This document shows positions 1-33,215 of a stretch of DNA of 64,000 nucleotides, one piece after another. The position numbers and the translations under genes are program-made. The first letter of the stretch is position 1. Every line of letters begins with the position of its first letter. The stretch comes from Candidatus Levyibacteriota bacterium (GTDB lineage: Bacteria > Patescibacteriota > Microgenomatia > Levybacterales > UBA12049): positions 317,681-381,680 of the forward strand of contig CAWBPM010000003.1 in the NCBI GenBank assembly GCA_963790825.1, read 5' to 3'. Below the pieces are notes generated by a model. It worked only from the letters and a program-made list of their open reading frames with translations, searched no databases and was not told the origin of the DNA.

Positions 1-267
1 TTGAATTATTTTTAACTCTCATATTGACTTGTAAAGTCTACCACCTGAAGAAGTCATTTCAAAAGTCCTTTTAAACTCAGGTTTGACAGGCTAAATTAGC
101 GGAATTTTTCGAGTTTTGAAATGAGTAAAAAGGGGTTCTAGCTTTACGTATATTTATCAATTTTCTTCTGAATCTTAATGGTTTCATTTCATAGCTCACA
201 TTTTATAGAAAATCTGGCAAGTGTAGATTTATTACCCTTAAACTTTCACAGTTTCATTTATATACTT

Positions 268-1029
268 TTAAATACAATTTTTAATAATGCCGTTCTCTTT
301 AAAACTAAAATATTCATCTGAAGTAACTATCAGATGATCTAGTATAGAAATACCCACTAGCTTACCTGCTTCTACAAGTCTATTTGTTGTGGATATATCT
401 TCCTGTGATGGTCTGTAGTCTTCAGATGGATGATTATGAGAAATAATAATCTGTGCGACATTTTCTTTTATAGCTTTTTTAAAAACTTCTCTTGGATGCA
501 CTAAACTGGAATTTAATGTGCCTACGCTAATTTCTTCATTAATTAATTTATTTCGTGTATCAAAATACAGAATAGTAAAGTGTTCTTCTTTTTTACTTCC
601 TATTTTTGATTGAAGGTATTCGGCAACTAACTTAGGAGAATTTAATAAAATTTTAGGAGATATTTTTTCCTTTGAGTATCGTTCGTAAATCGCTTTAAAT
701 AGAATCAATCCCAAAGCACTGGAACGCCCAATTCCCTTAATTGTAATTAGTTCAGTTATGTCTGCATCTAAAGCCCCTTTAAGGTTTTTGAATTTCTTTA
801 TAGCTTCTTTAGCCATGGGTTTACAATCTTTACGAGGTGTACCCAGAGTCAATAGCAATTCGATTATTTCGTAATCCAAAAAACCGTCTAGCCCAGCCTC
901 AATAAATTTTTCTCGAAGTCTTTTCCTATGCCCTTCGGCTGAATTTATTTTTTTGGTAATTAAATCAGAAGAATCGTTACTTTTCATTATTCTCTTGATC
1001 GACATTGAATGAAGCACCGCCAGCGTCAT
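268..1029 (-). CDS. radC: RadC-like JAB-domain protein (UPF0758). The likely true start is the internal Met near 987, because the upstream ORF ends at 977.
   Basis: C-terminal JAB/MPN motif ...IIISHNHPSEDYRPSQEDISTTNRL... (HNHPSG-type). N-terminal helix-hairpin-helix-like region. Overlaps the stop of the upstream DUF2075 gene, suggesting an operon. Confidence 0.8.
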   Translation of the reverse strand: MTLAVLHSMSIKRIMKSNDSSDLITKKINSAEGHRKRLREKFIEAGLDGFLDYEIIELLLTLGTPRKDCKPMAKEAIKKFKNLKGALDADITELITIKGIGRSSALGLILFKAIYERYSKEKISPKILLNSPKLVAEYLQSKIGSKKEEHFTILYFDTRNKLINEEISVGTLNSSLVHPREVFKKAIKENVAQIIISHNHPSEDYRPSQEDISTTNRLVEAGKLVGISILDHLIVTSDEYFSFKENGIIKNCI

Positions 1030-2902
1030 TATCGTATAAAGCAGAATTCATATTTTTGTTGTTTAAATGATTTTTAAAATATTCTTGTGTTTCTCTATCA
1101 ACTGAGTAAATGTAGCATCCCTTCATCCCTCTAGTCATAAGTGTCCTATATGTATTTTTAATAATCGTATCCACCATTATCTTTGCTGATTCTGGATTTT
1201 CTTTAAGCATATTCTTTATTCCTTTTACTGATTGATCTGTAGATGCACGCTTTGTCGCATCTGTAATAATCTTGCCGTTACGGATTATCATATCTGGACC
1301 GATTATTACCCCGACATAATCTAACTCCAATCCTTGAGAAGTGTGGATACAACCTACCTCTTTAACAGAATCAGGATGAATTATCCAAGCCTGACCGTGG
1401 GAGTTCAGATTCCAAGTAGCTTTATAATCTCCGATCACTATATCTTTTAATTCAGTATTATTCTTACTTATCCACTTCCAGCAATAACCGGCTAGTAATC
1501 TTGACTTATTGTTTTTCTGATTTAGGCCAATTATTTTTTCATGAAGAACACTGGGACTGTCTATAACTTTAAAGTCGAAATTAATATCTTCTAATGATTC
1601 ATTCGCCGTTTCTCTTATTTGTAATAGATTATCAATCCAAGCTAGATAACCGTCTGACCCATTACATCTAAACTGAGACTCTAATGTTAAAGATGTAACC
1701 TTTGCGTCAGCGTTTTTTGCCCAATTAATAATTTCCGATTTTTTACCTATATCTTTCAATGTAACTCTTTGATCCTCGTCAATAAAAAAAATACAAAGTT
1801 TGGAAGCATTTATTAACTCTTTTATTTGGTTTTCTCCTAGGTGACTAAATAAACCCGACTTTGCATTAAGTCTATGTGCTTCATCAACAATAAGCGAATC
1901 AAATGTATTAGCTCCGATATCATAAAATGAGCCCGATGAAGTAAATAAATTTGAAATACGGGTCTTTGTAAATTTCCCACTTAGTTTCACTTGGTAGACT
2001 TCTCGAGGTGCTGAATTTTTCGTAACGTATTGTGTTACGTCTCCTCTTTTTGTCAGTTCGGTAAGTAAATTTATCGCAACGACTGATTTTCCTGTACCAG
2101 GCCCTCCTTCCACTATTAGCACATTTTTATTAAAGTCAGACGATTCTTTTGCTAATTCAAGGGCAGTTTCGTATACAATTTTTTGATCGTCAATTAATAT
2201 AAATTCCTTATTGCCCTCAAGCATCGAAGCAAGGTTATCAGCTAATGCCTTAGATGGTCTAATTTTCCCATTCTCAATGTCATACAATATATTTGTTTTG
2301 TCACCAAATTTTACGAATCGTTTTATAAATAGTTGCAGTTTTAAGGCATCAGTTTTTAAAAATACAGGAGCCTTATCTGTGTATTCTTTATAAAAATTGT
2401 TATTAATAATTTCATAGCTGTCATAATTATGTAGGTATGCGCATGGAACTAAAGATATATTATTTTCCTGAACAGTACTGTTAAAGTCTTCTAATAATGT
2501 TGCGTATGACCAAACTTGATATGATGGGTGAGCAACTTCTCCATAAAAAGTTGTATTAAGAACGCCGTCTTTTTCAGATAAACTTACACCATCGCTCCAT
2601 TGTTTCAGCTCTACAATTACTGCTACTTTTCTATTCTCACTATTTGTGCCGGTAATTATAAAATCTATTCTTTTAGATGTTTGTGGAATCTTATATTCAA
2701 TTGCGATACCGGCATCATCGGGGATACTTGAATCGTTAATAACATTACTCATGTAAGGCATAGATTTACGCCATGAATTAATTTCACTTTTACCTGTCGA
2801 ATGTCCCATCTCTCGCACAAATGATGTAAGAATTTGTTGCTCTACTTGTCCAGACAATACATCGCTGAGGAAGTCTTTTTTGTTAGATGAATAAACAATC
2901 AT
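977..2902 (-). CDS. DUF2075-type (Schlafen/Nhi-like) P-loop NTPase with an N-terminal PD-(D/E)xK-like nuclease module
   Basis: N-terminus ...RIDFIITGTNS...VAVIVELKQW (D...ELK restriction-endonuclease-like core). Walker A GGPGTGKS, then DEAHRL (Walker B/DEAD-like). C-terminal GCIHTSQGLELDYVGVII...YRTLMTRGMKGCYIY, typical of DUF2075 helicase-like ATPases. Confidence 0.6.
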   Translation of the reverse strand: MIVYSSNKKDFLSDVLSGQVEQQILTSFVREMGHSTGKSEINSWRKSMPYMSNVINDSSIPDDAGIAIEYKIPQTSKRIDFIITGTNSENRKVAVIVELKQWSDGVSLSEKDGVLNTTFYGEVAHPSYQVWSYATLLEDFNSTVQENNISLVPCAYLHNYDSYEIINNNFYKEYTDKAPVFLKTDALKLQLFIKRFVKFGDKTNILYDIENGKIRPSKALADNLASMLEGNKEFILIDDQKIVYETALELAKESSDFNKNVLIVEGGPGTGKSVVAINLLTELTKRGDVTQYVTKNSAPREVYQVKLSGKFTKTRISNLFTSSGSFYDIGANTFDSLIVDEAHRLNAKSGLFSHLGENQIKELINASKLCIFFIDEDQRVTLKDIGKKSEIINWAKNADAKVTSLTLESQFRCNGSDGYLAWIDNLLQIRETANESLEDINFDFKVIDSPSVLHEKIIGLNQKNNKSRLLAGYCWKWISKNNTELKDIVIGDYKATWNLNSHGQAWIIHPDSVKEVGCIHTSQGLELDYVGVIIGPDMIIRNGKIITDATKRASTDQSVKGIKNMLKENPESAKIMVDTIIKNTYRTLMTRGMKGCYIYSVDRETQEYFKNHLNNKNMNSALYDNDAGGASFNVDQENNEK

Positions 2903-2905
2903 AAA

Positions 2906-3253
2906 TTATAATTCAGTATATTTTGTGTGTTTTCCTTTTGCTTTTTCGACAGGATATTTTTTTTTATTTTTTTTAAGTTTTTTTTCTAAGGCTATTGTAG
3001 GATCAATACTTAAGTCGTGACTAGCGAGTAAAACCCAATACAAAACATCTGCAAGTTCTTCACCAATTGCTTCTCTATTTTTCTTTATATACTCTTCCAT
3101 TTCTTTCTCGTTTTTCCATTGAAAATGTTCCATAAATTCTCCCGCTTCAAGTGAGAGAGATAGCGCAACGTCTTTAGGATTATGAAATTGTTTCCAATTT
3201 CTTGCATCGCGAAATTTTATTATTTTTTCTGTTAATTGTTTTATACTGGACAT
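2906..3253 (-). CDS. MazG-like nucleoside triphosphate pyrophosphohydrolase (all-alpha NTP-PPase)
   Basis: Motifs LSLEAGEFMEHF and GEELADVLYWVLLAS match the EExxE/D metal-binding helices of MazG/dUTPase-like NTP-PPases. Stop is 3 nt from the DUF2075 gene start. Confidence 0.65.
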   Translation of the reverse strand: MSSIKQLTEKIIKFRDARNWKQFHNPKDVALSLSLEAGEFMEHFQWKNEKEMEEYIKKNREAIGEELADVLYWVLLASHDLSIDPTIALEKKLKKNKKKYPVEKAKGKHTKYTEL

Positions 3254-3382
3254 AAATATTAAACCTGATCCGTATTATACGCTTTTTGGGGGAGGTTTGG
3301 AAAATTAACCCGCTATTAACTTTCAACTAATAACCAATAACTTCGTTTCTGTGAGCTTTGAAATCAAGCGGGGTAAAAATTA

Positions 3383-3436
3383 GTTGATGTCTTTATTGAC
3401 AATATCAACTAAATAGTATAATATGTTGATATTACT
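3383..3436 (+). promoter_or_regulatory. Sigma70-like promoter (TTGACA at 3396-3401; TATAAT/TAATAT at 3417-3424). It is overlapped by three GTTGAT/ATCAAC half-sites (3384-3389, 3404-3409, 3425-3430), an operator-like arrangement upstream of fic.
   Basis: Read directly: agttgatgtctttaTTGACAatatcaactaaatagTATAATatgttgatattactATG. Inverted repeat AATATCAAC(15 nt)GTTGATATT brackets the -10 element. Confidence 0.5.
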
Positions 3437-4618
3437 ATGGATAATGTCAACTCAGTGCAAATAGGCCGCTATGTCCAACAAAGTCATGGCTATAAAGCCT
3501 TTACTCCTTTTGAATTTCCGCCAAAAGGCGGTTTTATAATCAGCCCAAAATTATACAAAAAGCACGAAGAGGCTATAAGATTAGTCGGTAAATTAGATGG
3601 TATCACCAGACTCCTTCCGGATAAAGATTTTTTTCTGTTAATGTTTATAAAAAAAGATGCCACCTATTCTAGTCAGATTGAGGGTACAAAAGCTACATTG
3701 CAGGATGCAGTAGCTGAGCCAGTTACAGAAGAAAAGTCTCGACGACACCCGGACGTTGATGATATTATCCATTATATTGATGCTTTAAATTATGGCATTG
3801 AAAGAACTAAAACTTTACCAATCTCACTAAGACTTATAAGAGAAATCCACGAGCGATTGATGACTGGTGCACGTTCAACTCAGCATGCATATCCAGGAGA
3901 ATTTCGTCATTCCCAAAACTGGATAGGAGGGAAGACTCCAGCCGATGCTTCATTTGTTCCTCCTGCTCCAGTAGATATGCATAAGTCATTAAATGATCTG
4001 GAAAAATTTATCCATACAATAGATGAATATCCATCTTTAGTAAAAGCAGGACTAATCCATGCACAATTTGAAACAATTCATCCTTTTACAGACGGTAATG
4101 GCAGAACAGGAAGGATGTTAATTGCCATGTATATCCATCATGCCAGACTTTTAGAAATACCAGTTCTATACTTATCTAGCTATTTTAAAAAGTATCAAAA
4201 ACTTTACTACCAAAAACTGCAGGATTATCATGATGAAAATACACAGATGGAAGCCTGGCTGGAGTTTTTTTTGGAAGGTATTGCAGAAATTGCAAATGCT
4301 TCTATAGAAACATGTACAAAAATAACTGTCCTGAGAGACTCAGACTTTGCCAAAATGCAAAAACTTGGGAAAAAATCAGCACAGTCCACTTTGGAAATAA
4401 TCCGTAGATTATTTGGTCAGCCAATTGTGGGAGTTGCGGAAATAATGAAATGGACAGGTTTCAGTCCGCAAGGAGCATATAATGTTATTAAGCGGCTTGA
4501 AGACTTAAAAATTCTGGAACCTCTTGGTGATGCTACGTATGGACAAAAATACATTTATGCTGATTATTATGAAATCTTTGATGATACTTTTAGAGAAGCT
4601 AGGAGAAAAAATACATGA
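3437..4618 (+). CDS. fic: Fic/Doc family protein (AMPylase-type, class II with N-terminal inhibitory helix)
   Basis: Canonical Fic motif HPFTDGNGRTGR. N-terminal Fic_N-like region. Inhibitory S/TxxIEG motif (SSQIEGT). C-terminal winged-helix-like tail. Confidence 0.85.
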   Translation: MDNVNSVQIGRYVQQSHGYKAFTPFEFPPKGGFIISPKLYKKHEEAIRLVGKLDGITRLLPDKDFFLLMFIKKDATYSSQIEGTKATLQDAVAEPVTEEKSRRHPDVDDIIHYIDALNYGIERTKTLPISLRLIREIHERLMTGARSTQHAYPGEFRHSQNWIGGKTPADASFVPPAPVDMHKSLNDLEKFIHTIDEYPSLVKAGLIHAQFETIHPFTDGNGRTGRMLIAMYIHHARLLEIPVLYLSSYFKKYQKLYYQKLQDYHDENTQMEAWLEFFLEGIAEIANASIETCTKITVLRDSDFAKMQKLGKKSAQSTLEIIRRLFGQPIVGVAEIMKWTGFSPQGAYNVIKRLEDLKILEPLGDATYGQKYIYADYYEIFDDTFREARRKNT

Positions 4619-5292
4619 TTAAACTATCAAGATCAAAAATAGAATTACTATTTGATTGTCCAAGATGCTTCTGGCTCTATGCCGGGAAGGGAATAGCAAG
4701 ACCCTTTGGTGCTCCTTATACTATCAATAACGCGGTGGATTTCCTTCTGAAGAAAGAATTTGACGAGCATAGAAAAAATGGAACAGCTCATTGGTTAATA
4801 AAAAGAGAAGGAATAGATGCGATTCCGTTTATGCATGAAGATATCGATAAATGGAGGAATAATTTTACAGGAATTCAATATTACGATGGGGATACAGACT
4901 TTCTTGTTTTTGGTGCAGTAGATGATATTTGGGTTGATTCGAAAGGTAGTTTAATGGTTGTTGATTATAAAGCATCCGGCGCAAAAGAAGGCGAGCTACA
5001 TGACAGCTACAAACGCCAGATGGAGATTTATCAATGGATACTTCGAAAGAACGGTTTCAAGGTATTAAATAGAGGTTATTTTGTTTATTGCCGAGTAAAT
5101 AAAGATAATGGATTCGCAGACGGAAAATTAAGTTTTGACATAAAAGTGCAGCCGTATGACGGAGATGATTCCTGGGTCGAAAAAACTATTAAAGAAGCAA
5201 TTGAGTGCTTAAAGAGTGATAAAATACCTGATCCGGGTCTGGATTGTGATTTTTGTAAATACAGAGAGGCAGTTAGGCAGTTTGAAAAATAA
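4615..5292 (+). CDS. PD-(D/E)xK nuclease, Cas4/RecB-like, with 2+2 cysteines (possible Fe-S cluster)
   Basis: N-terminal CPRCFW. Motif II D (GAVDDIWVD). Motif III VVDYK. QxxxY motif (YKRQMEIYQWIL). C-terminal CDFCKY. Start overlaps the fic stop (ATGA). Confidence 0.6.
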   Translation: MIKLSRSKIELLFDCPRCFWLYAGKGIARPFGAPYTINNAVDFLLKKEFDEHRKNGTAHWLIKREGIDAIPFMHEDIDKWRNNFTGIQYYDGDTDFLVFGAVDDIWVDSKGSLMVVDYKASGAKEGELHDSYKRQMEIYQWILRKNGFKVLNRGYFVYCRVNKDNGFADGKLSFDIKVQPYDGDDSWVEKTIKEAIECLKSDKIPDPGLDCDFCKYREAVRQFEK

Positions 5293-5310
5293 GAAATTAT
5301 AATATAAACA

Positions 5311-6174
5311 ATGCAAAATAACTATACAGCTACAGAAAAAGACTTTAAAGCTATCGAGGAAGGAATACAAACAGTTTGGAGCCCGAAGTTATCATTTATT
5401 TTTAAAGATAAAGATATAATAAGGAATAGCGCAATTGTTGCTTTCGACAGTAAATATATTTACATCTGGACGACAAAAAAACTTGATAATGTAGATAAAA
5501 TTTACTGTTCATTAAAAAACTACTTCGCATATAAATGCCCACATAATATTGACATAGAGAATATTGACCGGATGGGATGGCGGGCCGGAATTTGGCCCCT
5601 TGAGCTAAATAATTTCTTACCACGGGAGCTTAAAAAAAACGATTTTGAAATTCCAAAACCCTGCGGAAGTATGCTTGGGGATTTTATCGTAAACCAAAAA
5701 AAGATCAGAGGAGAAAAAAATAATCCATATATAACTCATGATAGTTACTTAGCTACTATCGTCCACGAATTTGGACATATTTATTACAATCAACACAGAC
5801 TTTGGTGGTATTCAGACAAAACAGAAAATATTGGATATTTGCAGACTGCTTTAAATTTATATCTGGGTAAAAAAACGGGTAAAATTAAAGTCAGAATGCC
5901 ATCACCTACGTTCTTTAATGAAATTTTTGCTTTTTGCTCAGAATATTCTGCCGCAAAGATATTTTGGCAACAGCACAAAGAGAATCTGGATAAATTTGCC
6001 GTAGAATTAATAAAAAATATAATCAAAGAAGAAGAGCAAAAAAATTTAGATAATGAAGATTCCGTATTACAAATAGAAAACGCACACTATGGATCTTTTG
6101 TTTTGGGAAAGATCCTAATAGAAGAATCTCCTGCCTCATGGCCTCAAAAACTGTTACAACAACAAATATTATAA
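5311..6174 (+). CDS. hypothetical protein with HExxH zinc-metallopeptidase-like motif
   Basis: IVHEFGHIYYNQH (HExxH). No other recognisable domain. Third gene of the fic operon, 18-nt gap. Confidence 0.4.
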   Translation: MQNNYTATEKDFKAIEEGIQTVWSPKLSFIFKDKDIIRNSAIVAFDSKYIYIWTTKKLDNVDKIYCSLKNYFAYKCPHNIDIENIDRMGWRAGIWPLELNNFLPRELKKNDFEIPKPCGSMLGDFIVNQKKIRGEKNNPYITHDSYLATIVHEFGHIYYNQHRLWWYSDKTENIGYLQTALNLYLGKKTGKIKVRMPSPTFFNEIFAFCSEYSAAKIFWQQHKENLDKFAVELIKNIIKEEEQKNLDNEDSVLQIENAHYGSFVLGKILIEESPASWPQKLLQQQIL

Positions 6175-6193
6175 GAGTTTTGTTTCTTTTGCC
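6171..6193. repeat. AAGAGTTTTG-family intergenic repeat, copy D (aagagttttgtttcttttgcc)
   Basis: Shares aagagttttgtttcttttg with 12317-12335. The AAGAGTTTTG core also occurs at 8471, 9213 and 9271. Confidence 0.6.
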
Positions 6194-6225
6194 GTGTTCG
6201 CGCAGCTGACTTTTCGTCTCTTTAC

Positions 6226-6861
6226 TTATTGGTTCTTAAGAACCATTTCCCGGATTTGTTGTCGTCTGGGTTTGACATACCAGGTCGTCCAAACAAGTGT
6301 CAGGATTGAAATTGCGGTGAGGATAATCGGTGAAACTACCAGGACTACCGGAGTAGGTAATGAATAAACCATGATAACCCGTAAAATGAACTCGCCGACA
6401 TACGCCACTCCCCAAATGAGCGTTATTAAGCGGAACAGATCAAGTGCGATTTTCATTTGTAAAGATTTGCTAAATCTTTTTCTTTTTTCCGGATCTTTTC
6501 CTGCCACAAATTCACGGGCGAAATAAAACATTAACGGTCTTTTCGTCGGTAATGTTAAAAAACAGGCGATTCCGAGAAATCCGGTAAAGAACGATTCGCG
6601 GATCAGTAAAAGGCGGGGGCTGCCGCCAAGCAAAACTCCGGCAATACTAGTGAGTGTCCCGAGTAGTACTGTCGTCGAAATGACGTTCAGCGTATGATCT
6701 TTCATAAATTCGACTAATGTATCAAAAATTGGATACAGTGATGCCAGACTAAGCGCGATTACTTCTGATGCGGCGAAATATTTTTTAGCAATCGTGTACA
6801 TTGCGAAAGGAATGATGATGTTTAATAGTAAATCTTTTAGTGTATCCCGGAATTTTAGCAT
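6226..6861 (-). CDS. hypothetical integral membrane protein (higher GC than flanks)
   Basis: Multiple hydrophobic helices. No recognised motif. GC about 47% versus about 31% in the adjacent island. Confidence 0.5.
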   Translation of the reverse strand: MLKFRDTLKDLLLNIIIPFAMYTIAKKYFAASEVIALSLASLYPIFDTLVEFMKDHTLNVISTTVLLGTLTSIAGVLLGGSPRLLLIRESFFTGFLGIACFLTLPTKRPLMFYFAREFVAGKDPEKRKRFSKSLQMKIALDLFRLITLIWGVAYVGEFILRVIMVYSLPTPVVLVVSPIILTAISILTLVWTTWYVKPRRQQIREMVLKNQ

Positions 6862-7151
6862 GACCTACCCAGACTAGCATATTTGAAGCTATTTTCCTAG
6901 GACCGTTTCCATCTAAGAGGTCATTTGCCATAGAAACCAACCGCGTTTCCGTCCTTTGGTATTTGCATTTTAAAGCAGTGATTCTTTTACAGAGTATATA
7001 TCTAAGGTCGTTTTTCGTTCTTTTTGTGAGCATTGAAACAAAGCGCGTTAAAAATTATGAAATGAGTTGTCAGGGGGATTCCGGCGAATTGCCGGAGGGG
7101 GTGATATAACCCGATCAGTTCGCGAAAGCATTTTAGCTGACCGTTCACTGG

Positions 7152-7232
7152 CAAGAGAGCTTTGGTACTTTCTCGGCAGAAAGTATAGAAATAAAAAACG
7201 GGACGTTACTTAAAAATCCCCGAGGGGCGGAA
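7152..7232. repeat. Hairpin-containing intergenic repeat, copy A. 8-bp stem TACTTTCT-cggc-AGAAAGTA at 7166-7185, then a degenerate second module ending CGAGGGG.
   Basis: Direct comparison with 8432-8508 and 9170-9282. Confidence 0.6.
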
Positions 7233-7290
7233 GCGTTATATTTCTTATTCTATTGACAAGTCGTTGGGTTTGGGCCAAGATTAAATTGTA

Positions 7291-7869
7291 ATGGTAAAAC
7301 CTAATATCTATGCAGTTATTCTGGTCGGACTTTTAGCTGGATTAGCACAGTATACCGCTACAACTGCGTCTTTTTATCTGGTTGAGTTTTCAGGAATATT
7401 TTTCGGATTGTTCATGGGAACTTACTACTGTGTATTTTATAAACAGTCAGTCGCGAAAGCACTTTTATATATGCTAATTTCAGGCGTGTGTTTTTATGTA
7501 TCATGTTTGGTTTTTACTTTTATCAATCCCATATCATTCACATCTGGATATGATGAGACGAACTGGCTGAGATCAATAATGGCATTGTTGTGGGCTGGGG
7601 GAATCGGTGCTTTCGGTTTAGCCTTAGGTTTTCATTTTCTCTACAGCAAAATTACATCTCAGCGTTTCCTCGCGATTGTTGTAGTTGGGGGACTTCTAAG
7701 TTTTTTCTTTCTTTTAAATGGCGGTCCGATTTTCAATGAGTCAGGAAGCTCAAATCAATCCATACAGATTTTCTGGAGTTGGCTCTGGCTGTTTTTCGTC
7801 TGGCAAACCGGAGTGGCACTTACATTAACTTTTACGTTTCCCCAAAAGTCAGTAAATTCTAAATTCTAA
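7291..7869 (+). CDS. hypothetical integral membrane protein
   Basis: About 6 predicted TM helices. No motif. Confidence 0.5.
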   Translation: MVKPNIYAVILVGLLAGLAQYTATTASFYLVEFSGIFFGLFMGTYYCVFYKQSVAKALLYMLISGVCFYVSCLVFTFINPISFTSGYDETNWLRSIMALLWAGGIGAFGLALGFHFLYSKITSQRFLAIVVVGGLLSFFFLLNGGPIFNESGSSNQSIQIFWSWLWLFFVWQTGVALTLTFTFPQKSVNSKF

Positions 7870-7926
7870 CCCCCGGAGTTAAATAACTTCAAACCCCGGG
7901 TAGTTTCTACCTGGAAGGTGGAATAG

Positions 7927-8346
7927 CTACTGGTGAATGAATCTTTTTATTCCGAAACCGAATTGGGCAACCATTACCCAATATCCAATAAGAAGCATTA
8001 TGATATCTCCTCCGGATATAGTAGTAACGGAAATTTGCCAGAGAGATAGAAGTGTTGCTGCAATAAGATTTGCCAATCCCCAACGAAAGTTAACTTTCGG
8101 TTTTGTTTGTTGACCAAAAGGACTACGAGCAATAGTGTTTGACCGTCCCCAAATAAAATGAGGCATACCGTTCCCAAGAAAAGCACCGATTAAGAAATAC
8201 AAAAAGTAAGAGAGGAACATAATTAGACTGTAACAAATGTGCAGCGGATTATCAAGATAAATAATTTCCACCCTCCAGGTGGAATAGCAAGCTAAGTCTT
8301 GTGTTCCCATCGCGTTTCCATTCTTGGTAAATATAATATTGATCAT
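7927..8346 (-). CDS. hypothetical integral membrane protein
   Basis: Hydrophobic 139-aa ORF. No motif. Confidence 0.45.
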   Translation of the reverse strand: MINIIFTKNGNAMGTQDLACYSTWRVEIIYLDNPLHICYSLIMFLSYFLYFLIGAFLGNGMPHFIWGRSNTIARSPFGQQTKPKVNFRWGLANLIAATLLSLWQISVTTISGGDIIMLLIGYWVMVAQFGFGIKRFIHQ

Positions 8347-8431
8347 TCATTGAAAATTGCCATTGGTTCTGAGCGTAGCCAAGTTAAGCTTGGCGGAGTT
8401 GAAGGAAAAATTGGATTTTGAAAATTTATAT

Positions 8432-8508
8432 CCGCTTTCTCGGCAGAAAGTACAATAAAAAGGGTTGCAAAGAGTTTTGGGCGTCTTTTTAAAAAGACGC
8501 GAGGGGAA
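8432..8508. repeat. Hairpin-containing intergenic repeat, copy B. Hairpin 2 ctttct-cggc-agaaag at 8435-8450. AAGAGTTTTG at 8471-8480. Hairpin 1 gcgtcttttt/aaaaagacgc at 8481-8500. CGAGGGG at 8500-8506.
   Basis: Seen directly. Most complete copy of the unit. Confidence 0.65.
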
Positions 8509-8509
8509 T

Positions 8510-8782
8510 TTATTCATTTATCCGGGTGTAATTTTGAAGCAATATACTATACATTAATGCGTCTTCCGCAATTTTTTGTTTATCATCACCATCAAGAATT
8601 GTTTCCAGTTTCTCTAGGATTGTTTTTATATATGGTTTTATCTCTTCCTCATTAACCTCATTTCTTCGGGCGATTGCCTCTTGAGTGAAGCGTTTTGCCA
8701 TATTTATTGATCCTCTGTAATAGCCCAAGGCCACCCGTTTCAGATCCATACTTAAAGATTCTAATGCGATTTTATTATTCAT
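8510..8782 (-). CDS. hypothetical protein. Its stop overlaps the start of the upstream ORF by 8 nt.
   Basis: 90-aa ORF, translationally coupled with 8775..9116. Confidence 0.4.
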   Translation of the reverse strand: MNNKIALESLSMDLKRVALGYYRGSINMAKRFTQEAIARRNEVNEEEIKPYIKTILEKLETILDGDDKQKIAEDALMYSILLQNYTRINE

Positions 8783-9116
8783 ATAATTCCTTAAAGAAAA
8801 ATCGTGTTAACTTTTCAAATTTTTTCCTGATTGTTTTATCCTGAATTTCATTGCTTGTATTATTCAGAGCAGGCCGGATATTAATGAACGAGTTAAAATC
8901 AATAACTTTTGTCTCTAAATCTATGCCTCCGCCCCACAAATCATCTTGATTTGATCCGCTCTTTAACAATAGTTCTTCCGACTCAAAATGTCTGTCGCAT
9001 CCTGCAGAGCAAACTTTTTTCCCGATATCTATTACGGTTTTAATATATACATCAAACTGCTCGCGAAGTTTTTTAATTTCCTCTTTTGTATACGCATCGG
9101 ATTTGGTAATTATCAC
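8775..9116 (-). CDS. hypothetical protein (GTG start)
   Basis: 113-aa ORF overlapping the downstream 90-aa ORF. No confident family assignment. Confidence 0.4.
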   Translation of the reverse strand: MIITKSDAYTKEEIKKLREQFDVYIKTVIDIGKKVCSAGCDRHFESEELLLKSGSNQDDLWGGGIDLETKVIDFNSFINIRPALNNTSNEIQDKTIRKKFEKLTRFFFKELYE

Positions 9117-9169
9117 TGTCTTATTTTAGCAAATTATACTCTTTAAAACTATAAAGCCGTTTTTTCTTC

Positions 9170-9282
9170 TCAAAAAGTTTTGGGCCTCTTTTTAAAAAGA
9201 CGCAGGAAATATAAGAGTTTGCTCGCCTCGCTGCGAAGCAGGATACTTTCCCGGCAGAAAGTATAAAAATAAGAGTTTTGTC
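9170..9282. repeat. Hairpin-containing intergenic repeat, copy C, permuted order. Hairpin-1-like cctctttttaaaaagacgcagg at 9185-9206. AAGAGTTTG at 9213. Hairpin 2 tactttcc-cggc-agaaagta at 9245-9264. AAGAGTTTTG at 9271-9280.
   Basis: Seen directly. Confidence 0.6.
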
Positions 9283-9442
9283 CATTCTGCTCTAAACACA
9301 AAGATAACAGGGTCCGGCCCAAACCTTTAATCCAGAAAACCACATGTCCCGATGATTCCGCCATCCGGAACAAATCTGTTATGTGCCAGAATACGCTCCC
9401 GTTCAGCTTGACATTAATTTAATTTAATACAATAATCTCTAC

Positions 9443-10081
9443 ATGATTGAGGATCCCCTCTCCTTTACTATAGAACCTGAGAATTATGCCGAAACTGTTG
9501 TCAAACAAAACAGACAAATTGCGGAAAGTTTCCGCCTCAGTGTCTTAGCTGAAATTAAAAAGCGTAACTTAACTAAAGATGGAAATGAGATTGTAAGACA
9601 ACTGCTTGGGAGTGGCCAAGGTGGAGTTCTGGGAGTAATCAATAGTGAAGGACGTATGTTCCGACAAATGATGAAGACTATTCCTAATTCACACCCTGAT
9701 GCAATAGGAATAAATGTAGGAGGACTATCCGTATTTTATGCACTAGCCAACGGCAATAAAGCTAAATATAAAGAAGAAGGAGATGCTTTTGTTCGTGGAG
9801 TTGCCGGAAGAATGGGCTTTATTACACAGGACGATGATCCCTCCGCTTCAGAGCGAATAAGAATGGTCACAATTCCTGATGAGTTGGACCAGAAGCCTAA
9901 ATACAGCGTATCTATTCAGGATTTCCAATGGCTGGCGGGCACTCCATACTTAAGAGGACGGCAAATGTTTAAAGATAACAGACATCCCAGTCTGCCATAT
10001 GCCTTATCTACTTTTACTACTCTGGATATTGAACCGGATATGGTCTTTATCAGACGGTTACGCCTTCCATTCCTTTCTTGA
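9443..10081 (+). CDS. hypothetical protein
   Basis: 212-aa ORF. No motif. Confidence 0.4.
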   Translation: MIEDPLSFTIEPENYAETVVKQNRQIAESFRLSVLAEIKKRNLTKDGNEIVRQLLGSGQGGVLGVINSEGRMFRQMMKTIPNSHPDAIGINVGGLSVFYALANGNKAKYKEEGDAFVRGVAGRMGFITQDDDPSASERIRMVTIPDELDQKPKYSVSIQDFQWLAGTPYLRGRQMFKDNRHPSLPYALSTFTTLDIEPDMVFIRRLRLPFLS

Positions 10082-10096
10082 TGTTCCTGGCTTTGA

Positions 10097-10579
10097 CTAC
10101 GGTGTGACCTTACCCGCGCGTAGGATAGCCGAATTCAGTTCAACCGGGTATTCGACATCCAGGATCGTATCTCCACGTTCGGGGTAAAACTCATCCCAGC
10201 GACAGACTGACCTTACGATATGTGAACAATTAGGATCATCCATCTCCTGTAAAAGTTCCTCACCCCCTCCGGCAACAGCTTCTTCTCTGCTGAGTACCTC
10301 AGACCCTTTATAAAAATGGCGGGTGGTCTCATGATGCTCGGAACCGGCTATAGTTTCACCATCTATGGTACCTCTGTATATCCAGTATTTTTCCAGCGCA
10401 AATGTTGAGGCAGCTTGTTCGGCAATTTCATTAAGGGATTTTTCTCCAAGAAAAACTACTGTATCCGCTTGGGGACGACTAAGATTGTACCCTGTACCGC
10501 AAAGACGGACCGCCCAGACTTTTTGAACTTCGACACAGACCGGGTTGTTCGGCGGATTTTTTATTATTGATTCCTTCAT
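10097..10579 (-). CDS. hypothetical protein (about 50% GC)
   Basis: 160-aa ORF. No motif. Confidence 0.4.
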   Translation of the reverse strand: MKESIIKNPPNNPVCVEVQKVWAVRLCGTGYNLSRPQADTVVFLGEKSLNEIAEQAASTFALEKYWIYRGTIDGETIAGSEHHETTRHFYKGSEVLSREEAVAGGGEELLQEMDDPNCSHIVRSVCRWDEFYPERGDTILDVEYPVELNSAILRAGKVTP

Positions 10580-10782
10580 TTAATTTAATATATCGCGTGG
10601 ACAATATAACAAAAGCGCTATGAATTGTCAAAACTATAAGTCAAAGTGGGTGTAGTCTCCACCCTCCGGTGATTTAGCTTTGCACTTGTTTTAGAAGCTA
10701 AATTTTTGTAATTTGATATGCATGACGGGTAGTTTACCAGGCTGTGTGCGGATTGAAAGAAAAATGCTAAAATAGGGCTCAT

Positions 10783-11352
10783 ATGTTAGAAGGGTTTACT
10801 GAAAGTGAACGAAGAGCTTTAGAACGGCTCAGACGCAGGACGCAAGAATTGTCTCCAATTGAGAAAGAACGATTAAGGCAAAGAAAAGAGGGGTATAGTA
10901 GTCCCGTAAATACTAGGGATATTGATCCGCTTCGTGATGTAATAGCTGCTTATACTGCATTAAATACGTGGATGCGGAAAGAAGCCGGAGATATGACTAC
11001 TACTTCGGAGGGTGTGTTGATTAAAAAAAGCATTCAACGACAAACTCCGGCAGGAATGGTAGAAGTAGTGCAGCATTTTAACCAGCCATATAGCCCAATT
11101 TATGTCACTTCGATGACAACGGGAAGACAGGGCATTTCACAGGAAGACTCCTTTACGCTTAATAGTGCAAGTTTTTTCGATTTGCGGGAGAGAAAAAGCA
11201 GTACCGGAAAAGTAACTACTTACTCAGAAATGTATCTTGCTGTATCCGGAGACCTTTCAGCCCAAAATATGACGTATGGGCAACGAAAGGCAGTTTTTGC
11301 TATCCACCAAATAATTATTTCAATTGTAGCTCCTCATAATCCTTCCGGGTAA
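10783..11352 (+). CDS. hypothetical protein
   Basis: 189-aa ORF. No motif. Confidence 0.4.
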   Translation: MLEGFTESERRALERLRRRTQELSPIEKERLRQRKEGYSSPVNTRDIDPLRDVIAAYTALNTWMRKEAGDMTTTSEGVLIKKSIQRQTPAGMVEVVQHFNQPYSPIYVTSMTTGRQGISQEDSFTLNSASFFDLRERKSSTGKVTTYSEMYLAVSGDLSAQNMTYGQRKAVFAIHQIIISIVAPHNPSG

Positions 11353-11441
11353 AGAGCGGAAAAGAACAAAGAAAAAGTAACTTATAGCGTAATTTTCCCA
11401 TTTATGCTGATATATTTTCTAAAAAGGGTTTAATTTTATAA

Positions 11442-12317
11442 TTAGTAAGTCTTAAAAGAAGTCCTATTTTTTTTCACTCTCCTGTAAACTTCTATAGGAG
11501 TAACTTTGGGTATAGCGGCTGCTGCCAATACTGCCGCAGGAATTAGTCCTATTAATTTTTCCCTGGATACAATTCGGGACTTATCATCAATAAGCTCGCC
11601 TCTATTCGTATACCGGTTATACGCCGAATATAAATTAGCTACTATTTGCGCTGTGTCCAAAGCCGGCTGCCGTTCAGGCATGGCTCCACTGGCAGTATTC
11701 AGAAATATTCTTCCGATTCTGGAACCCGGAAAAGCCAGTACGTTAGTGCCCACTTCGCGCACTTCGTGTCCGTCAAGCCACATAGTCAATTCTCTGACTA
11801 TTGTAGGCAGAGATGTCGTGAGTGCAACGCCGTCTGCTGCCAGCATTCCCGGTAAATCGTTTCTTTCGGCTGCGGATTTGCTTCGCAATAATGCAAGGAA
11901 TGATTCCTGTAATCTGTCCGTGGTTACATCCAGTACTGCACCAAAAGCTTTATTATGCTTTCCCGGTGTTTCTTTCTCAATGATTCCGGCTACTCCTCCA
12001 TCAACTGCATCACAAGCATAGCCCAGCATTTGTAAAACTAAGCTTAACCACCACATGACCTTTCTGTCTTTTTTTGCTTTTTTATTTTCGCTTTCCATGA
12101 TTACTCCGCCAATACCGACGGAGACGAAGCCTGCAAGGGTAATTTCATTCGGTGTAGCGCCCGGGATTACTTCATGCAGATGCCGGCTTATTGAATTTAC
12201 CGGTCTTTTGAATATCTTTCTAAATGGAGAATTCTTTCCGGCATGTCCGGCGAAAGGTGATTCGGACTCAATTTTCTTCATGGCTGGTAATATACTATAA
12301 CTGAGAGAATTTTGCAA
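11442..12317 (-). CDS. CDP-alcohol phosphatidyltransferase family protein. The start is probably the internal Met near 12281.
   Basis: Signature D-x2-DG-x2-A(G)-x8-G-x3-D-x3-D: CDAVDGGVAG...GAVLDVTTD. Membrane helices. Confidence 0.55.
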   Translation of the reverse strand: MQNSLSYSILPAMKKIESESPFAGHAGKNSPFRKIFKRPVNSISRHLHEVIPGATPNEITLAGFVSVGIGGVIMESENKKAKKDRKVMWWLSLVLQMLGYACDAVDGGVAGIIEKETPGKHNKAFGAVLDVTTDRLQESFLALLRSKSAAERNDLPGMLAADGVALTTSLPTIVRELTMWLDGHEVREVGTNVLAFPGSRIGRIFLNTASGAMPERQPALDTAQIVANLYSAYNRYTNRGELIDDKSRIVSREKLIGLIPAAVLAAAAIPKVTPIEVYRRVKKNRTSFKTY

Positions 12318-12338
12318 AGAGTTTTGTTTCTTTTGTAG
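12312..12338. repeat. AAGAGTTTTG-family repeat, copy E (tttgcaaagagttttgtttcttttgtag)
   Basis: tttgcaaagagttttg is shared with 8466-8480. aagagttttgtttcttttg is shared with 6173-6191. Confidence 0.6.
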
Positions 12339-33140: not shown

Positions 33141-33211
33141 CGGGGAATAGTATAGCGGTAGTACGCCGCGCTGGGGGTGCGGTAGCGGGAGTTCAATTCT
33201 CCCTTCCCCGA
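33141..33211 (+). tRNA. tRNA-Pro (anticodon GGG), no encoded CCA
   Basis: Acceptor CGGGGAA/TTCCCCG. Anticodon stem ccgcg/tgcgg with loop cTGGGgg. T-arm gggag-TTCAATT-ctccc. Discriminator A. Confidence 0.75.
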
Positions 33212-33215
33212 CACT

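Follow-up and report, generated by a model that had tools for sequence, protein, structure and literature searches.

A low-GC block in a Patescibacteria chromosome as a probable composite defence island that includes a conserved MazG-like/nuclease-helicase/RadC cassette

Within the 64-kb stretch of DNA analysed here (the window), positions 1-6174 and about 1.3 kb to their left probably form a composite, horizontally acquired defence island of independently mobile modules in a CPR/Patescibacteria chromosome; just as probably, this block is neither one system nor an integrase-borne element. The preliminary description saw in it two divergent three-gene operons. Judged by gene order in related loci, the left trio (MazG-like protein, PD-(D/E)XK-DUF2075 nuclease-helicase and RadC, in that order) is a genuine conserved and widespread cassette, whereas the right arm is a local juxtaposition and not a conserved operon. 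All six family assignments made earlier (MazG-like, DUF2075, RadC, Fic, Cas4-like and HExxH) were confirmed (Table 1). The proposal of a defence or conflict locus is partly borne out by the foreign composition of the block and by modules that recur at high identity in unrelated contexts rich in restriction-modification (R-M) or defence genes; an anti-phage function, however, is what we infer from these sequences.

Table 1. Features of the low-GC block, in window coordinates
Feature	Position	Strand	Evidence
Spacer downstream of RadC	1..267	.	Low-GC block goes on to its left on contig L001
RadC, third gene of left cassette	268..1029	-	Pfam RadC PF04002 1.1e-43, UPF0758_N 1.2e-09
PD-(D/E)XK nuclease + DUF2075/SLFN-g3-type P-loop helicase, short form without S24	977..2902	-	SLFN-g3_helicase 2.1e-105, residues 259-602
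MazG-like all-alpha NTP pyrophosphohydrolase, first gene of left cassette	2906..3253	-	Pfam MazG-like 9.4e-18
Divergent control region, 183 bp	3254..3436	.	Promoter scan, inverted repeats I3-I5
SoFic-type class II Fic AMPylase	3437..4618	+	PADLOC SoFic 1e-104, Pfam Fic + Fic_N
Solo Cas4-like PD-(D/E)XK nuclease	4615..5292	+	PDDEXK_1 3.8e-12, weak Cas_Cas4 8.4e-06
HExxH gluzincin-type metallopeptidase (predicted)	5311..6174	+	H152, E153, H156, E204 invariant in family

The block had been put at roughly 30% GC against 40% or more in the rest of the window. It is indeed AT-richer, but the values are 33.6% in 1-6200 and 39.0% in 6201-64000, and the contrast (5.4 points) is about half of that claimed. 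Composition is clearly not uniform: no other 6.2-kb stretch of the window is as low in GC as positions 1-6200 (sliding mean 38.7%, sd 1.9), and none deviates as much in tetranucleotide usage, where the distance to the rest is 0.226, compared with 0.10-0.16 elsewhere. GC content at third codon positions (GC3) is 0.20-0.30 in the six block genes (mean 0.257) versus 0.344 in the 57 other window ORFs (Mann-Whitney p=1.9e-4), and the low GC3 tail holds all eight consecutive block genes, including two that lie left of the window (p=1.6e-5). The right edge is sharp, with GC3 passing from 0.285 in the HExxH gene to 0.42 in the next gene (6226-6861).

A second, weaker low-GC patch (35.3% GC) is found at 39-47 kb, and single genes elsewhere in the window have GC3 values of 0.25-0.27. 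The modest contrast, this patch, these genes and the lack of insertion scars at the block would all suit an explanation without any island, in which an AT-rich genome shows ordinary local GC heterogeneity and six unrelated resident genes came together by chance. We regard that as very improbable, given that the block is the window extreme by both measures, that eight genes in a row share the low GC3, and that the modules have relatives at 82-90% identity in differing genomic contexts. Moreover, the other low-GC patches likewise carry accessory-type genes, namely a Mutator-family transposase and TPR paralogues.

As had been suspected, the left edge lies beyond the window start. The public contig L001, which is 100% identical to window positions 1-6120, reaches 3346 bp left of window position 1, and on it the low-GC block runs on to about -1300. 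This extension contains a 154-aa ORF and then a 294-aa restriction-endonuclease fragment (GC3 of 0.21 and 0.25), beyond which GC3 is 0.37 in the next gene, encoding a lipoprotein. The 294-aa ORF matches RE_endonuc (PF19778, 3.5e-37) over residues 188-287 and PHROG 11902 at positions 704-984 of 1000; by these alignments, all that is left of a restriction enzyme of some 1000 aa is its C-terminal endonuclease part, a decayed fragment. An integrase or att site, which the preliminary description proposed to look for on the left, was not found in the 3346 bp. From 3.3 kb left to 5 kb right of the block there are no integrase, recombinase, structural, replication or conjugation genes, searches at the block for an att site, a tRNA, a boundary or flanking repeat and an insertion scar found none, and no gene flanking the block recurs in any related locus retrieved. 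The first copy of the repeat AAGAGTTTTG does coincide with the right boundary, as described earlier, at 6173-6182, where it overlaps the HExxH stop codon. The repeat does not mark the island, however: its four copies in the window (0.4 expected) are all on the right side (6173-12326), embedded in longer intergenic motifs, and because both the block itself and the 3.3 kb to its left lack it, we rejected it as an att-type boundary repeat.

These data also bear on the possibility that a mobile element (a prophage, ICE or plasmid) once integrated here and decayed, leaving the block as a remnant whose cargo serves the element in anti-defence or takeover. On that view, RadC and MazG would be present as in phage/ICE polyvalent proteins, Fic would be a toxin and the Cas4-like protein a phage-type exonuclease. 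On the one hand, the block is low in GC and its restriction gene is truncated; RadC (7.9e-40), the MazG-like protein (1.1e-15), Fic (1.4e-77) and the Cas4-like protein (1e-14) have PHROGs matches; some elements have a RadC-type JAB domain joined to the ArdC anti-restriction module in a single protein; and a record named Microcystis phage Mwe-JY31 contains a full-length DUF2075 homologue with a small ORF upstream. On the other hand, the mobility genes, tRNA and boundary repeats sought around the block are missing, a search of 2.9 million IMG/VR viral contigs gave no helicase relative, a close full-length relative (56.5% identity) is present in just one of 50,697 phage records (three other matches are at 31% or less), and most cassette loci are on large chromosomal contigs. 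We therefore consider such an origin improbable, and the composite island remains our preferred reading.

The left cassette is defined by its recurrence. Of 82 related loci, 77 have a MazG-like gene immediately before the DUF2075 gene, at a gap of -32 to +72 nt where the ORF call allowed measurement; in the window, the stop codon of the former is 3 nt from the start codon of the latter. The closest database homologues of RadC share contigs with the closest DUF2075 homologues. Cassette loci span CPR, Desulfobacterota, Bacteroidota, Elusimicrobia, Kiritimatiellia, Fibrobacteres and others, and further relatives (50-56% identity) are carried by bacterial and archaeal plasmids. The distribution is patchy, the flanks hold no conserved gene and the context differs in nearly every locus; 111 cassette neighbours match 139 Pfam families, the top ones being RhuM, ResIII, HNH_2, nSTAND3-TPR, PLDc_2, SWI2_SNF2 and DUF3427. 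Our literature search found no paper describing the MazG-like/nuclease-helicase cassette with RadC.

The nuclease-helicase belongs to a family of 772 clusters (50% identity level, E<=1e-30); the Pfam family DUF2075 is now named SLFN-g3_helicase. An N-terminal PD-(D/E)XK nuclease (D80, E98, K100) precedes a Walker A motif (267-273) and a DEAH box (340-343), and the catalytic residues are kept in at least 95% of 82 relatives. A sequence search of solved structures gave no relative. PADLOC, which recognized Fic over its full length, returned only partial matches for the helicase, to PDC-S41 (3e-18), AbiO and Nhi, and none for the MazG-like protein. The architecture is shared with Nhi and Nhi-like anti-phage proteins, and the Nhi-like architecture is that of a validated defence protein. 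The MazG-like protein resembles dCTP pyrophosphatase 1 (DCTPP1), its nearest solved structures being 4qgp (3.7e-20) and DCTPP1/RS21-C6 (1.5e-17); the metal-binding residues E36, E39, E42, E66 and D69 are kept in at least 90% of 77 cassette copies. RadC passes the NCBIfam equivalog NF000642 (217.9 bits, cut-off 180), and its JAMM residues (HPRE178-181, H198xH200 and PS..D207-211) recur in 90% or more of the 18 RadCs of the related loci. Translation of the window RadC probably begins at M9 or M15, since relatives align from residue 13-31.

A LexA-like S24 autopeptidase domain is fused to the C-terminus of the helicase in 30 of the 82 loci. These proteins are long (767-832 aa); Peptidase_S24 was detected in all eight tested (23-80 bits), the GxSM serine motif is present in 29 of the 30 and a LexA-type K(V/I)AAG site in most. 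A RadC gene adjoins the DUF2075 gene in 17 loci, CPR in every informatively labelled case, either after the helicase, which is the S24 position (14 loci), or between the MazG-like and helicase genes (3 loci). The two modules never co-occur among the 82 loci (Fisher p=3e-4 on 16 ORF-called loci, uncorrected for phylogeny), an exclusivity that could stem from no more than one or two evolutionary events. Because 35 loci have neither module, the cassette does not require a peptidase switch. The window RadC shares 53-85% identity with cassette RadCs and about 40% with further RadC paralogues found in the cassette loci. The RadC-bearing cassette gives a testable clue to RadC function.

We suggest that in this cassette (module A, 268-3253) the helicase would load on DNA that is foreign or aberrant (replication intermediates, for instance) and its nuclease would degrade that DNA, while the MazG pyrophosphatase would hydrolyse a pool of (d)NTPs, perhaps dCTP or a modified form of it. 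The enzyme is probably under the control of a peptidase module: in many lineages, cleavage of the S24 fusion at K(V/I)AAG would couple activation to RecA-coated single-stranded DNA, and in CPR lineages a separate RadC (an HhH DNA-binding module with a JAB metallo-domain) may be a stand-in switch. The role of RadC, the MazG substrate and the order of events are what we infer from these patterns.

The same genes could instead make module A a DNA-repair or house-cleaning operon, with the low-GC block accessory but serving genome maintenance rather than immunity: the MazG-like protein would sanitise the dNTP pool, the nuclease-helicase would process damaged or stalled replication intermediates, and RadC or the LexA-like S24 domain would supply the link to the SOS/RecA response. 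DCTPP1-like enzymes are house-cleaning enzymes. The helicase is 57-87% identical across phyla with many invariant positions, unusually high for an immune gene; the window RadC passes the canonical equivalog; an AAG cleavage site in an S24/LexA-type domain is the hallmark of SOS-controlled proteins; on contig L003 the cassette sits among the core genes ruvX, yceG, rpoB and rpoC; and comparative work has placed RadC-type JAB domains in DNA-repair contexts. Nevertheless, we find a maintenance role unlikely. The cassette is patchily distributed in ever-changing contexts, restriction, STAND, PLD and RhuM genes are enriched among its neighbours, its relatives are found on plasmids and across domains at >50% identity, and in this window its composition is foreign and its neighbours include SoFic-type and restriction genes. 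In addition, published genetics reportedly finds no DNA-repair phenotype for radC.

Returning to the island of mobile modules, the control region between the arms measures 183 bp, as described before, and has a promoter-like site facing each way. The minus-strand site (3303-3274) points at the MazG-like gene, upstream of which no conservation was found among cassette loci. On the Fic side, a predicted -35/-10 pair (3396-3424) is flanked and interleaved by three GTTGAY/RTCAAC half-sites (3380-3388, 3401-3412 and 3425-3433). Nucleotide homology to contig L170 starts at 3371, and the 60 nt upstream of Fic are kept in all four genomic contexts, the window and three others that hold Fic copies about 89% identical, one of them within a type I R-M operon. 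By this conservation, 3371-3436 is Fic's own portable predicted promoter-operator.

The PADLOC SoFic match spans model positions 5-359 of 361, and the nearest solved structure is SoFic of Shewanella oneidensis (4e-27). Both the active site (HPFTDGNGRTGR, residues 215-226) and the N-terminal inhibitory motif SSQIEG (78-83) are intact. The protein scores far under the NCBIfam SoFic equivalog cut-off (140.7 vs 550 bits), and a substantial share of genomes has matches to SoFic-type models. Auto-inhibited Fic moves with its promoter-operator (module B, 3371-4618), probably repressing itself via its C-terminal winged-helix domain and probably AMPylating a target upon infection.

The start codon of the Cas4-like gene overlaps the Fic stop codon (ATGA), and the nuclease (module C, 4615-5292) would here be translationally coupled to Fic. 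Full-length Fic is near the Cas4-like gene in only one of 80 Cas4-like loci. The cysteines C15, C18, C211 and C214 are invariant in a CxxC...CxxC arrangement (75 full-length relatives), with DYK at 117-119 and QMEIY at 135-139, and the score is under the TIGR00372 cut-off (39.4 vs 65 bits). Metagenome contigs yielded 327 relatives. Neighbours of the 80 are mostly co-directional and about a third have R-M or defence domains; adjacent genes include HsdR, HsdM, Eco57I/MmeI/TaqI_C, type III Res and GmrSD, as well as OLD-TOPRIM, AAA_21, Trypsin_2/Trypco2 and Cap15. Its place at the 3' end of restriction operons (types I, IIG and III) and of other defence genes hints at an accessory nuclease that would process DNA ends or serve as a back-up.

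The HExxH peptidase is a bystander, though compositionally it is within the low-GC block. It has no significant Pfam match, and its gene has its own promoter-like site (5274-5303). In the three other contexts sampled, its relatives are linked to neither Fic nor the Cas4-like gene, and radical-SAM genes adjoin. The family is small, with members so far in CPR only, and the nearest homologue (71% identical) is on a 1.2-kb contig.

The first 6.2 kb of the window is compositionally set apart from the rest. The GC contrast claimed for it in the preliminary description is real, but only about half as large as estimated (33.6% for 1-6.2 kb versus 39.0% for the remainder). This is the lowest-GC 6.2-kb stretch of the window (sliding mean 38.7%, sd 1.9), and its tetranucleotide distance to the remainder is the largest in the window (0.226, against 0.10-0.16 elsewhere). 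GC3 of the six genes in the block is 0.20-0.30, compared with 0.344 in the 57 other open reading frames (ORFs; Mann-Whitney p=1.9e-4), and the right edge is sharp: GC3 rises from 0.285 in the gene for the HExxH protein to 0.42 in the next gene. The block thus deviates in composition as integrative islands, prophages and ICEs do. Chance heterogeneity sits more easily with the reduced GC contrast than with the tetranucleotide and third-position values, and we regard it as highly improbable.

The block extends beyond the window. An exact-protein look-up retrieved a 100%-identical public contig, L001 (9466 bp), which corresponds to window 1-6120 and reaches 3346 bp further left. There, low GC runs on through a 154-aa ORF and then a 294-aa ORF, up to a lipoprotein gene (GC3 0.37) beyond the left end of the block; the block is therefore about 7.5 kb long and holds eight ORFs. 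The 294-aa ORF matches PF19778 at its residues 188-287 and PHROG 11902 at positions 704-984 of 1000, and because only the C-terminal endonuclease part of a type III-like restriction enzyme of about 1000 aa remains, it is probably a decayed gene. In another related contig (L134), a homologue of the 154-aa ORF, 46% identical, has a RadC gene on one side and a Cas4-like gene on the other; the ORF may thus travel with these modules. L001, an independent Logan assembly of run ERR11594402, ends at window 6120. The compositional boundary, at 6174, lies 54 nt further on, and the break could be strain-level variation at the junction or merely low coverage.

The sequence AAGAGTTTTG, the first copy of which had been noted to coincide with the island boundary, is over-represented (4 copies versus 0.4 expected). 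However, every copy lies within 6173-12326, to the right of the block and inside longer intergenic motifs, and none is found on the left side; we therefore rejected it as a boundary repeat, and it is not an insertion scar. In the ORFs scanned between 3.3 kb left of the window and window position 11.4 kb, no integrase or recombinase was detected. A search for att-like direct repeats showed that the zones around the two candidate boundaries share nothing but chance 9-mers. No tRNA gene adjoins the block, the sole tRNA gene of the window being at 33,141, and a search for close relatives that share the flanks gave none: the flanking genes (VC0807-family, the 7291 and 7927 ORFs, Lipoprotein_21 and a 302-aa ORF) had no match in the approximately 175 fetched loci.

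Coordinates of the features discussed (window positions unless a related contig is named)
Feature	Coordinates	Strand	Remark
RadC	268-1029	minus	left arm
DUF2075 nuclease-helicase	977-2902	minus	left arm
MazG-like protein	2906-3253	minus	left arm
Divergent control region	3254-3436
Fic	3437-4618	plus	right arm
Cas4-like nuclease	4615-5292	plus	right arm
HExxH protein	5311-6174	plus	right arm
Restriction-endonuclease fragment and 154-aa ORF region	L001 6117-7421		left of window position 1
DUF2075 fragment	L170 8362-9081		upstream of Fic copy, one ORF between
Cas4-like gene at the tail of R-M operons, example loci	L090 300-8413; L099 1143-6666; L172 220-8477
Second DUF2075 paralogue in tandem	L063 10001-13782
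Intergenic motif family	7166-7194, 8433-8479, 9244-9280, 6171-6192, 12315-12336, 8468-8500, 9171-9203	plus	all within 6-12.3 kb
Mutator-family transposase and tRNA-Pro GGG region	33141-34270		PF00872, 5.9e-08
TPR-repeat proteins, 575-581 aa	40736-42463, 43494-45236, 55922-57667	minus

Profile searches bore out all the gene families named in the preliminary description, and the 183-bp divergent spacer also holds, with a promoter-like site in each direction. Of the two three-gene operons described, the left arm proved to be a conserved cassette, whereas the right arm is a juxtaposition. As in defence islands, at least two recognised defence-type genes lie within a few kb: a match to the SoFic model, a nuclease-helicase with Nhi-like architecture, the restriction-endonuclease fragment, and a Cas4-like protein from a family with relatives in restriction-modification (R-M) operons. 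We think it probable that the block is a composite defence island of independently mobile modules, which would act against phages. It might instead be what is left of the cargo of a mobile element, acting in anti-defence; the deviating composition would suit such cargo, the scan for an integrase or recombinase gave it nothing, and we consider it quite unlikely. A composite defence island is as such an ordinary kind of thing. Bacteria of the Candidate Phyla Radiation (CPR), with their tiny genomes, are generally assumed to devote little to immunity; in this CPR genome, about 7.5 kb is taken up by three or more stacked, mobile modules of defence type.

The Fic protein matches the PADLOC SoFic model (PDLC03963) over its full length (1e-104; residues 18-382 against model positions 5-359 of 361), including the Fic_N, Fic and C-terminal domains. 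Its catalytic motif HxFx(D/E)GNGRxxR is present as HPFTDGNGRTGR at residues 215-226 (Pfam Fic, 3.4e-19). The closest solved structure is SoFic from Shewanella oneidensis (4e-27; 3eqx, 3zcn), with which it has the Fic_N and Fic domains and this active site in common; the class II inhibitory SxxxEG motif is also kept. Against the model for orthologues of S. oneidensis SoFic (NF046030), it scored 140.7 bits, the cut-off being 550, and it is therefore a member of the SoFic family, not an orthologue. Unlike stand-alone SoFic, the window Fic is translationally coupled to the Cas4-like nuclease.

Copies of this Fic, approximately 89% identical, are found in three other places, on the related contigs L170, L172 and L173. 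In L170 and L173, a DUF2075 fragment is followed by one unassigned ORF, the Fic gene and a 61-aa remnant, which corresponds to residues 1-56 of the Cas4-like protein. The L172 copy is embedded in a type I R-M operon with the order HsdM-Fic-HsdS-...-HsdR. In other bacteria, PrrC-like guard genes occupy the hsdM-hsdS interval; the SoFic-type gene of L172 is thus at a site where such guards sit elsewhere. The 60 nt upstream of the Fic start are conserved in all four contexts and contain a -35/-10 pair and three GTTGAY/RTCAAC half-sites; Fic therefore moves with its own predicted promoter-operator, and it may regulate its own expression. We did not find an upstream operator-like array of this kind discussed in the SoFic literature that we examined. 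The portable promoter-operator offers a concrete lead on how defence genes are regulated.

The Cas4-like nuclease has the PD-(D/E)XK core, the DxK and QxxxY motifs and the four bracketing cysteines of Cas4, solo Cas4 and AddB 'iron-staple' nucleases. Residues C15, C18, C211 and C214 (CxxC...CxxC) are invariant in 75 relatives, and the RecB-type motifs DYK (117-119) and QxxxY (QMEIY in the window protein, 135-139) are invariant or nearly so. However, its cysteines are arranged 2+2, whereas the usual arrangement in Cas4 and AddB is 1+3, and it reached only 39.4 bits against the Cas4 model TIGR00372 (threshold at least 65 bits). The scan of ORFs reaching from L001 to window 11.4 kb detected no cas genes, a search of window 1-14 kb gave no CRISPR repeat array, and the Pfam matches listed for the immediate neighbours of 80 Cas4-like relatives include no Cas family. 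This protein is not a Cas4.

Its family, with 327 relatives in metagenome contigs, is found at the 3' end of restriction operons, not in CRISPR loci. Immediate neighbours are mostly co-directional and often abutting, and about a third carry R-M or defence domains: HsdR, HsdM and HsdS; Eco57I, MmeI and TaqI_C; type III Res with methylase; GmrSD and HNH; OLD-TOPRIM and AAA_21; Trypsin_2 with Trypco2; and Cap15, RhuM and Bro-N. In CPR-type metagenome contigs (L090-L169), type I, IIG and III R-M operons repeatedly have the Cas4-like gene as their last or penultimate member; an overlap of this gene with the end of that for the R subunit is common, and in several loci a gene for a trypsin-like peptidase comes next. 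A full-length Fic lies near the Cas4-like gene in a single one of the 80 fetched loci, and the helicase-RadC cassette lies within 4 kb of it in two, to which the genome locus L004 adds another. The position at the tails of restriction operons is a concrete lead on how defence genes combine.

The third protein of the right arm, the HExxH protein, is one of a family that comprises 117 sequences and lacks any Pfam domain. Residues H152, E153, H156 and E204 are invariant, and the AlphaFold2 model has a pLDDT of 94. The gene has a promoter-like site of its own. The contexts of its homologues differ from one another: in three of them it adjoins a radical-SAM/SPASM gene and a small ORF, and in none does it adjoin Fic or the Cas4-like gene. 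The nearest homologue, 71% identical, is on a 1.2-kb contig.

The left arm is built around the MazG-like protein and the nuclease-helicase. The helicase gene is directly preceded by a MazG-like gene in 77 of 82 loci, with a gap of -32 to +72 nt where the ORF calls allowed it to be measured; neighbouring ORFs in these fetched loci were predicted with a simple ORF caller, with some assignments corrected by tblastn, and at least one of the five exceptions is cut by a contig end. Catalytic residues are conserved in both partners. In the helicase (641 aa), the PD-(D/E)XK motif (D80, E98, K100) is kept in at least 95% of 82 relatives, Walker A and DEAH are intact, and residues 259-602 match SLFN-g3_helicase (2e-105); its AlphaFold2 model, from a 14-sequence alignment, was unusable (pLDDT 45). 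The MazG-like protein scored 64.7 bits against the NTP pyrophosphohydrolase family PF12643 (cut-off 27), with the ExxE...ExxD motif present and E36, E39, E42, E66 and D69 intact; the metal ligands are kept in at least 90% of 77 relatives. Its closest solved structures are 4qgp and dCTP pyrophosphatase 1 (DCTPP1/RS21-C6; 1.5e-17); with DCTPP1 and other all-alpha MazG-family pyrophosphatases it has the ExxE...ExxD ligands in common, and a nucleoside triphosphate would be its predicted substrate. Unlike DCTPP1, the window protein is only 115 aa long and shares an operon with a nuclease-helicase.

Homologues of the helicase number in the thousands (772 clusters at 50% identity and E<=1e-30). Among the best 120, identity is 68-87% and many CPR lineages are represented: Levy-, Davies-, Woese-, Roizman-, Gottesman-, Andersen- and Moranbacteria and Paceibacterota. 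When one genome was scanned for each species, at least 581 relatives were returned; the best 80 show 56-86% identity, and some of them are from Desulfobacterota, Geobacter, Bacteroidota, Elusimicrobia, Kiritimatiellia and Fibrobacteres. Plasmid-borne relatives with 50-56% identity occur in the archaea Methanosphaera (plasmid pNP174; L176) and Halalkalicoccus (NC_014298.1) and in Hymenobacter, Marivirga and Halomonas; the family thus spans the boundary between Bacteria and Archaea at more than 50% identity. None was found in the viral contigs of IMG/VR. A 22-kb record deposited as Microcystis phage Mwe-JY31 (L175) also carries a helicase relative, with a 110-aa ORF at the usual position of the MazG-like gene.

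The flanks of the cassette vary by locus, with 111 neighbours matching 139 Pfam families. The commonest neighbour domains (RhuM, ResIII, HNH_2, a second DUF2075 protein, nSTAND3-TPR, PLDc_2, SWI2_SNF2 and DUF3427) are typical defence-island content. We found no conserved third gene beside the short or S24-bearing helicase forms, and a comparison of nine cassette loci showed no promoter conserved ahead of the MazG-like gene (mean identity 34%). A pyrophosphohydrolase paired with a nuclease-helicase might also make up a DNA-repair or house-cleaning operon; with such variable, defence-rich surroundings, we consider this reading of the cassette unlikely. A second, divergent DUF2075 paralogue (34% identity) is present in some loci, either in tandem with the first (L063) or as a fragment (L170).

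Among known defence systems, the closest likeness is to Nhi from Staphylococcus epidermidis (SERP2475) and Nhi-like proteins, which have the same architecture, an N-terminal PD-(D/E)XK nuclease followed by a DUF2075 (PF09848) helicase in one polypeptide. According to the Nhi paper, the DUF2075-type helicase belongs to superfamily 1B. However, the window helicase does not match the Nhi or AbiO models over their full length: the PADLOC models Nhi (49 bits, 7e-14) and AbiO (4e-16) match residues 231-444 only, in the helicase core, and PDC-S41 matches residues 18-290 only. Millman et al. (2022) themselves report no sequence identity between Nhi and their Nhi-like protein. Furthermore, Nhi and Nhi-like proteins are single-gene systems, whereas the window family is nearly always paired with a MazG-like gene and often has an S24 domain or an adjacent RadC gene. 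No PADLOC model matched the MazG-like protein. In the 8 million papers that we searched, a collection that is incomplete, so that a prior description is possible, no full text had MazG and DUF2075 together, nothing relevant linked Nhi with MazG or a dCTP pyrophosphatase with anti-phage activity, and no paper described the S24 or RadC variants of the cassette.

The cassette exists in three variants: plain, S24-fused and RadC-linked. In 30 of the 82 loci, the helicase is 767-832 aa long, compared with about 620 aa otherwise, and the additional C-terminal 170 aa are a LexA-like Peptidase_S24 domain in all eight long forms tested (23-80 bits). The GxSM serine motif is present in all but one of the 30 long forms, and most have the GK(V/I)VL lysine motif downstream and a (V/I)AAG site resembling the LexA cleavage site. 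The domain is of the LexA/UmuD/CI type and predicted to be self-cleaving; its fusion to a nuclease-helicase, in place of a DNA-binding repressor domain, is unusual. The window helicase itself has no S24 domain.

A RadC gene adjoins the cassette in 17 loci, and each of those with an informative organism label is from CPR. In 14 of them, it follows the helicase gene, overlapping or abutting it, in the place that the S24 domain takes in the fused forms; in the remaining loci (L028, L031 and L056), it lies between the MazG-like and helicase genes. S24 and RadC are found together in none of the loci (Fisher p=3e-4 on 16 ORF-called loci, uncorrected for phylogeny). The RadC forms cluster phylogenetically, so that the pattern may go back to a very small number of independent events. 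The S24 form also occurs within CPR (L032, L079). In 35 of the 82 loci, neither module is present, and any such switch would therefore be optional.

The window RadC scored 217.9 bits against the RadC family model NF000642 (cut-off 180), and its JAMM motif is intact, with E181, H198, H200, S208 and D211 present and conserved. Cassette RadCs form a group of their own and are 53-85% identical to it, except for two from Saccharibacteria (L013, L016) at about 35%; many are on contigs equal in size to those bearing the closest helicases. In L004 and L007, another RadC-type gene, about 40% identical to the window RadC, lies within 5 kb of the cassette, and in L004 it is an extra copy beside the cassette RadC.

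RadC is near-ubiquitous, and ever since its 'DNA repair' name proved misleading, what it does has been a long-standing question. That it alternates with a peptidase here suggests a function in proteolysis or regulation. A comparable case is known: the RadC-type JAB domain is fused to DinG helicases and alternates there with a 3'-5' exonuclease (Iyer et al. 2011; DinG review 2025), and from this alternation Iyer et al. (2011) suggested a nuclease role. RadC-like DinG resembles the cassette in that a RadC-type JAB is tied to a helicase whose relatives carry another catalytic domain in the same place. However, DinG belongs to superfamily 2 and has RadC fused to it, whereas in the cassette RadC is a separate gene beside a DUF2075-type helicase and alternates with a peptidase. 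Through the S24/RadC alternation, it becomes directly testable whether RadC acts as a nuclease, as a peptidase or as neither.

We tentatively propose, as a possibility that we hold to be rather doubtful, that the MazG-like protein and the nuclease-helicase make up a widespread two-gene immune or DNA-damage-triggered suicide system, the on-switch of which is an interchangeable peptidase module, S24 or RadC. In many phyla, the fused LexA-like S24 autopeptidase would sense RecA-coated single-stranded DNA and so couple activation to RecA; in CPR, RadC would stand in for it, supplying the peptidase switch in trans. If this were true, the first concrete molecular role of RadC would be to license a partner nuclease-helicase as a JAB peptidase guided by DNA. 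The cassette is found in at least 581 species-representative genomes and spans Bacteria and Archaea.

Elsewhere in the window, a family of intergenic motifs consists of the palindrome TACTTTCyCGGCAGAAAGTA, an A/T-rich -10-like stretch and then AAGAGTTTTG, followed in two places by the GC-rich hairpin GCGTCTTTTTAAAAAGACGC. These motifs may serve the genes for small membrane proteins next to them as common promoter-operator or terminator elements. The Mutator-family transposase is 33 nt downstream of the sole tRNA gene and opens a second lower-GC stretch (33-37 kb, about 36%). The three TPR-repeat proteins are possibly paralogues, and two of them (GC3 0.31 and 0.26) account for a low-GC patch at 39-47 kb.
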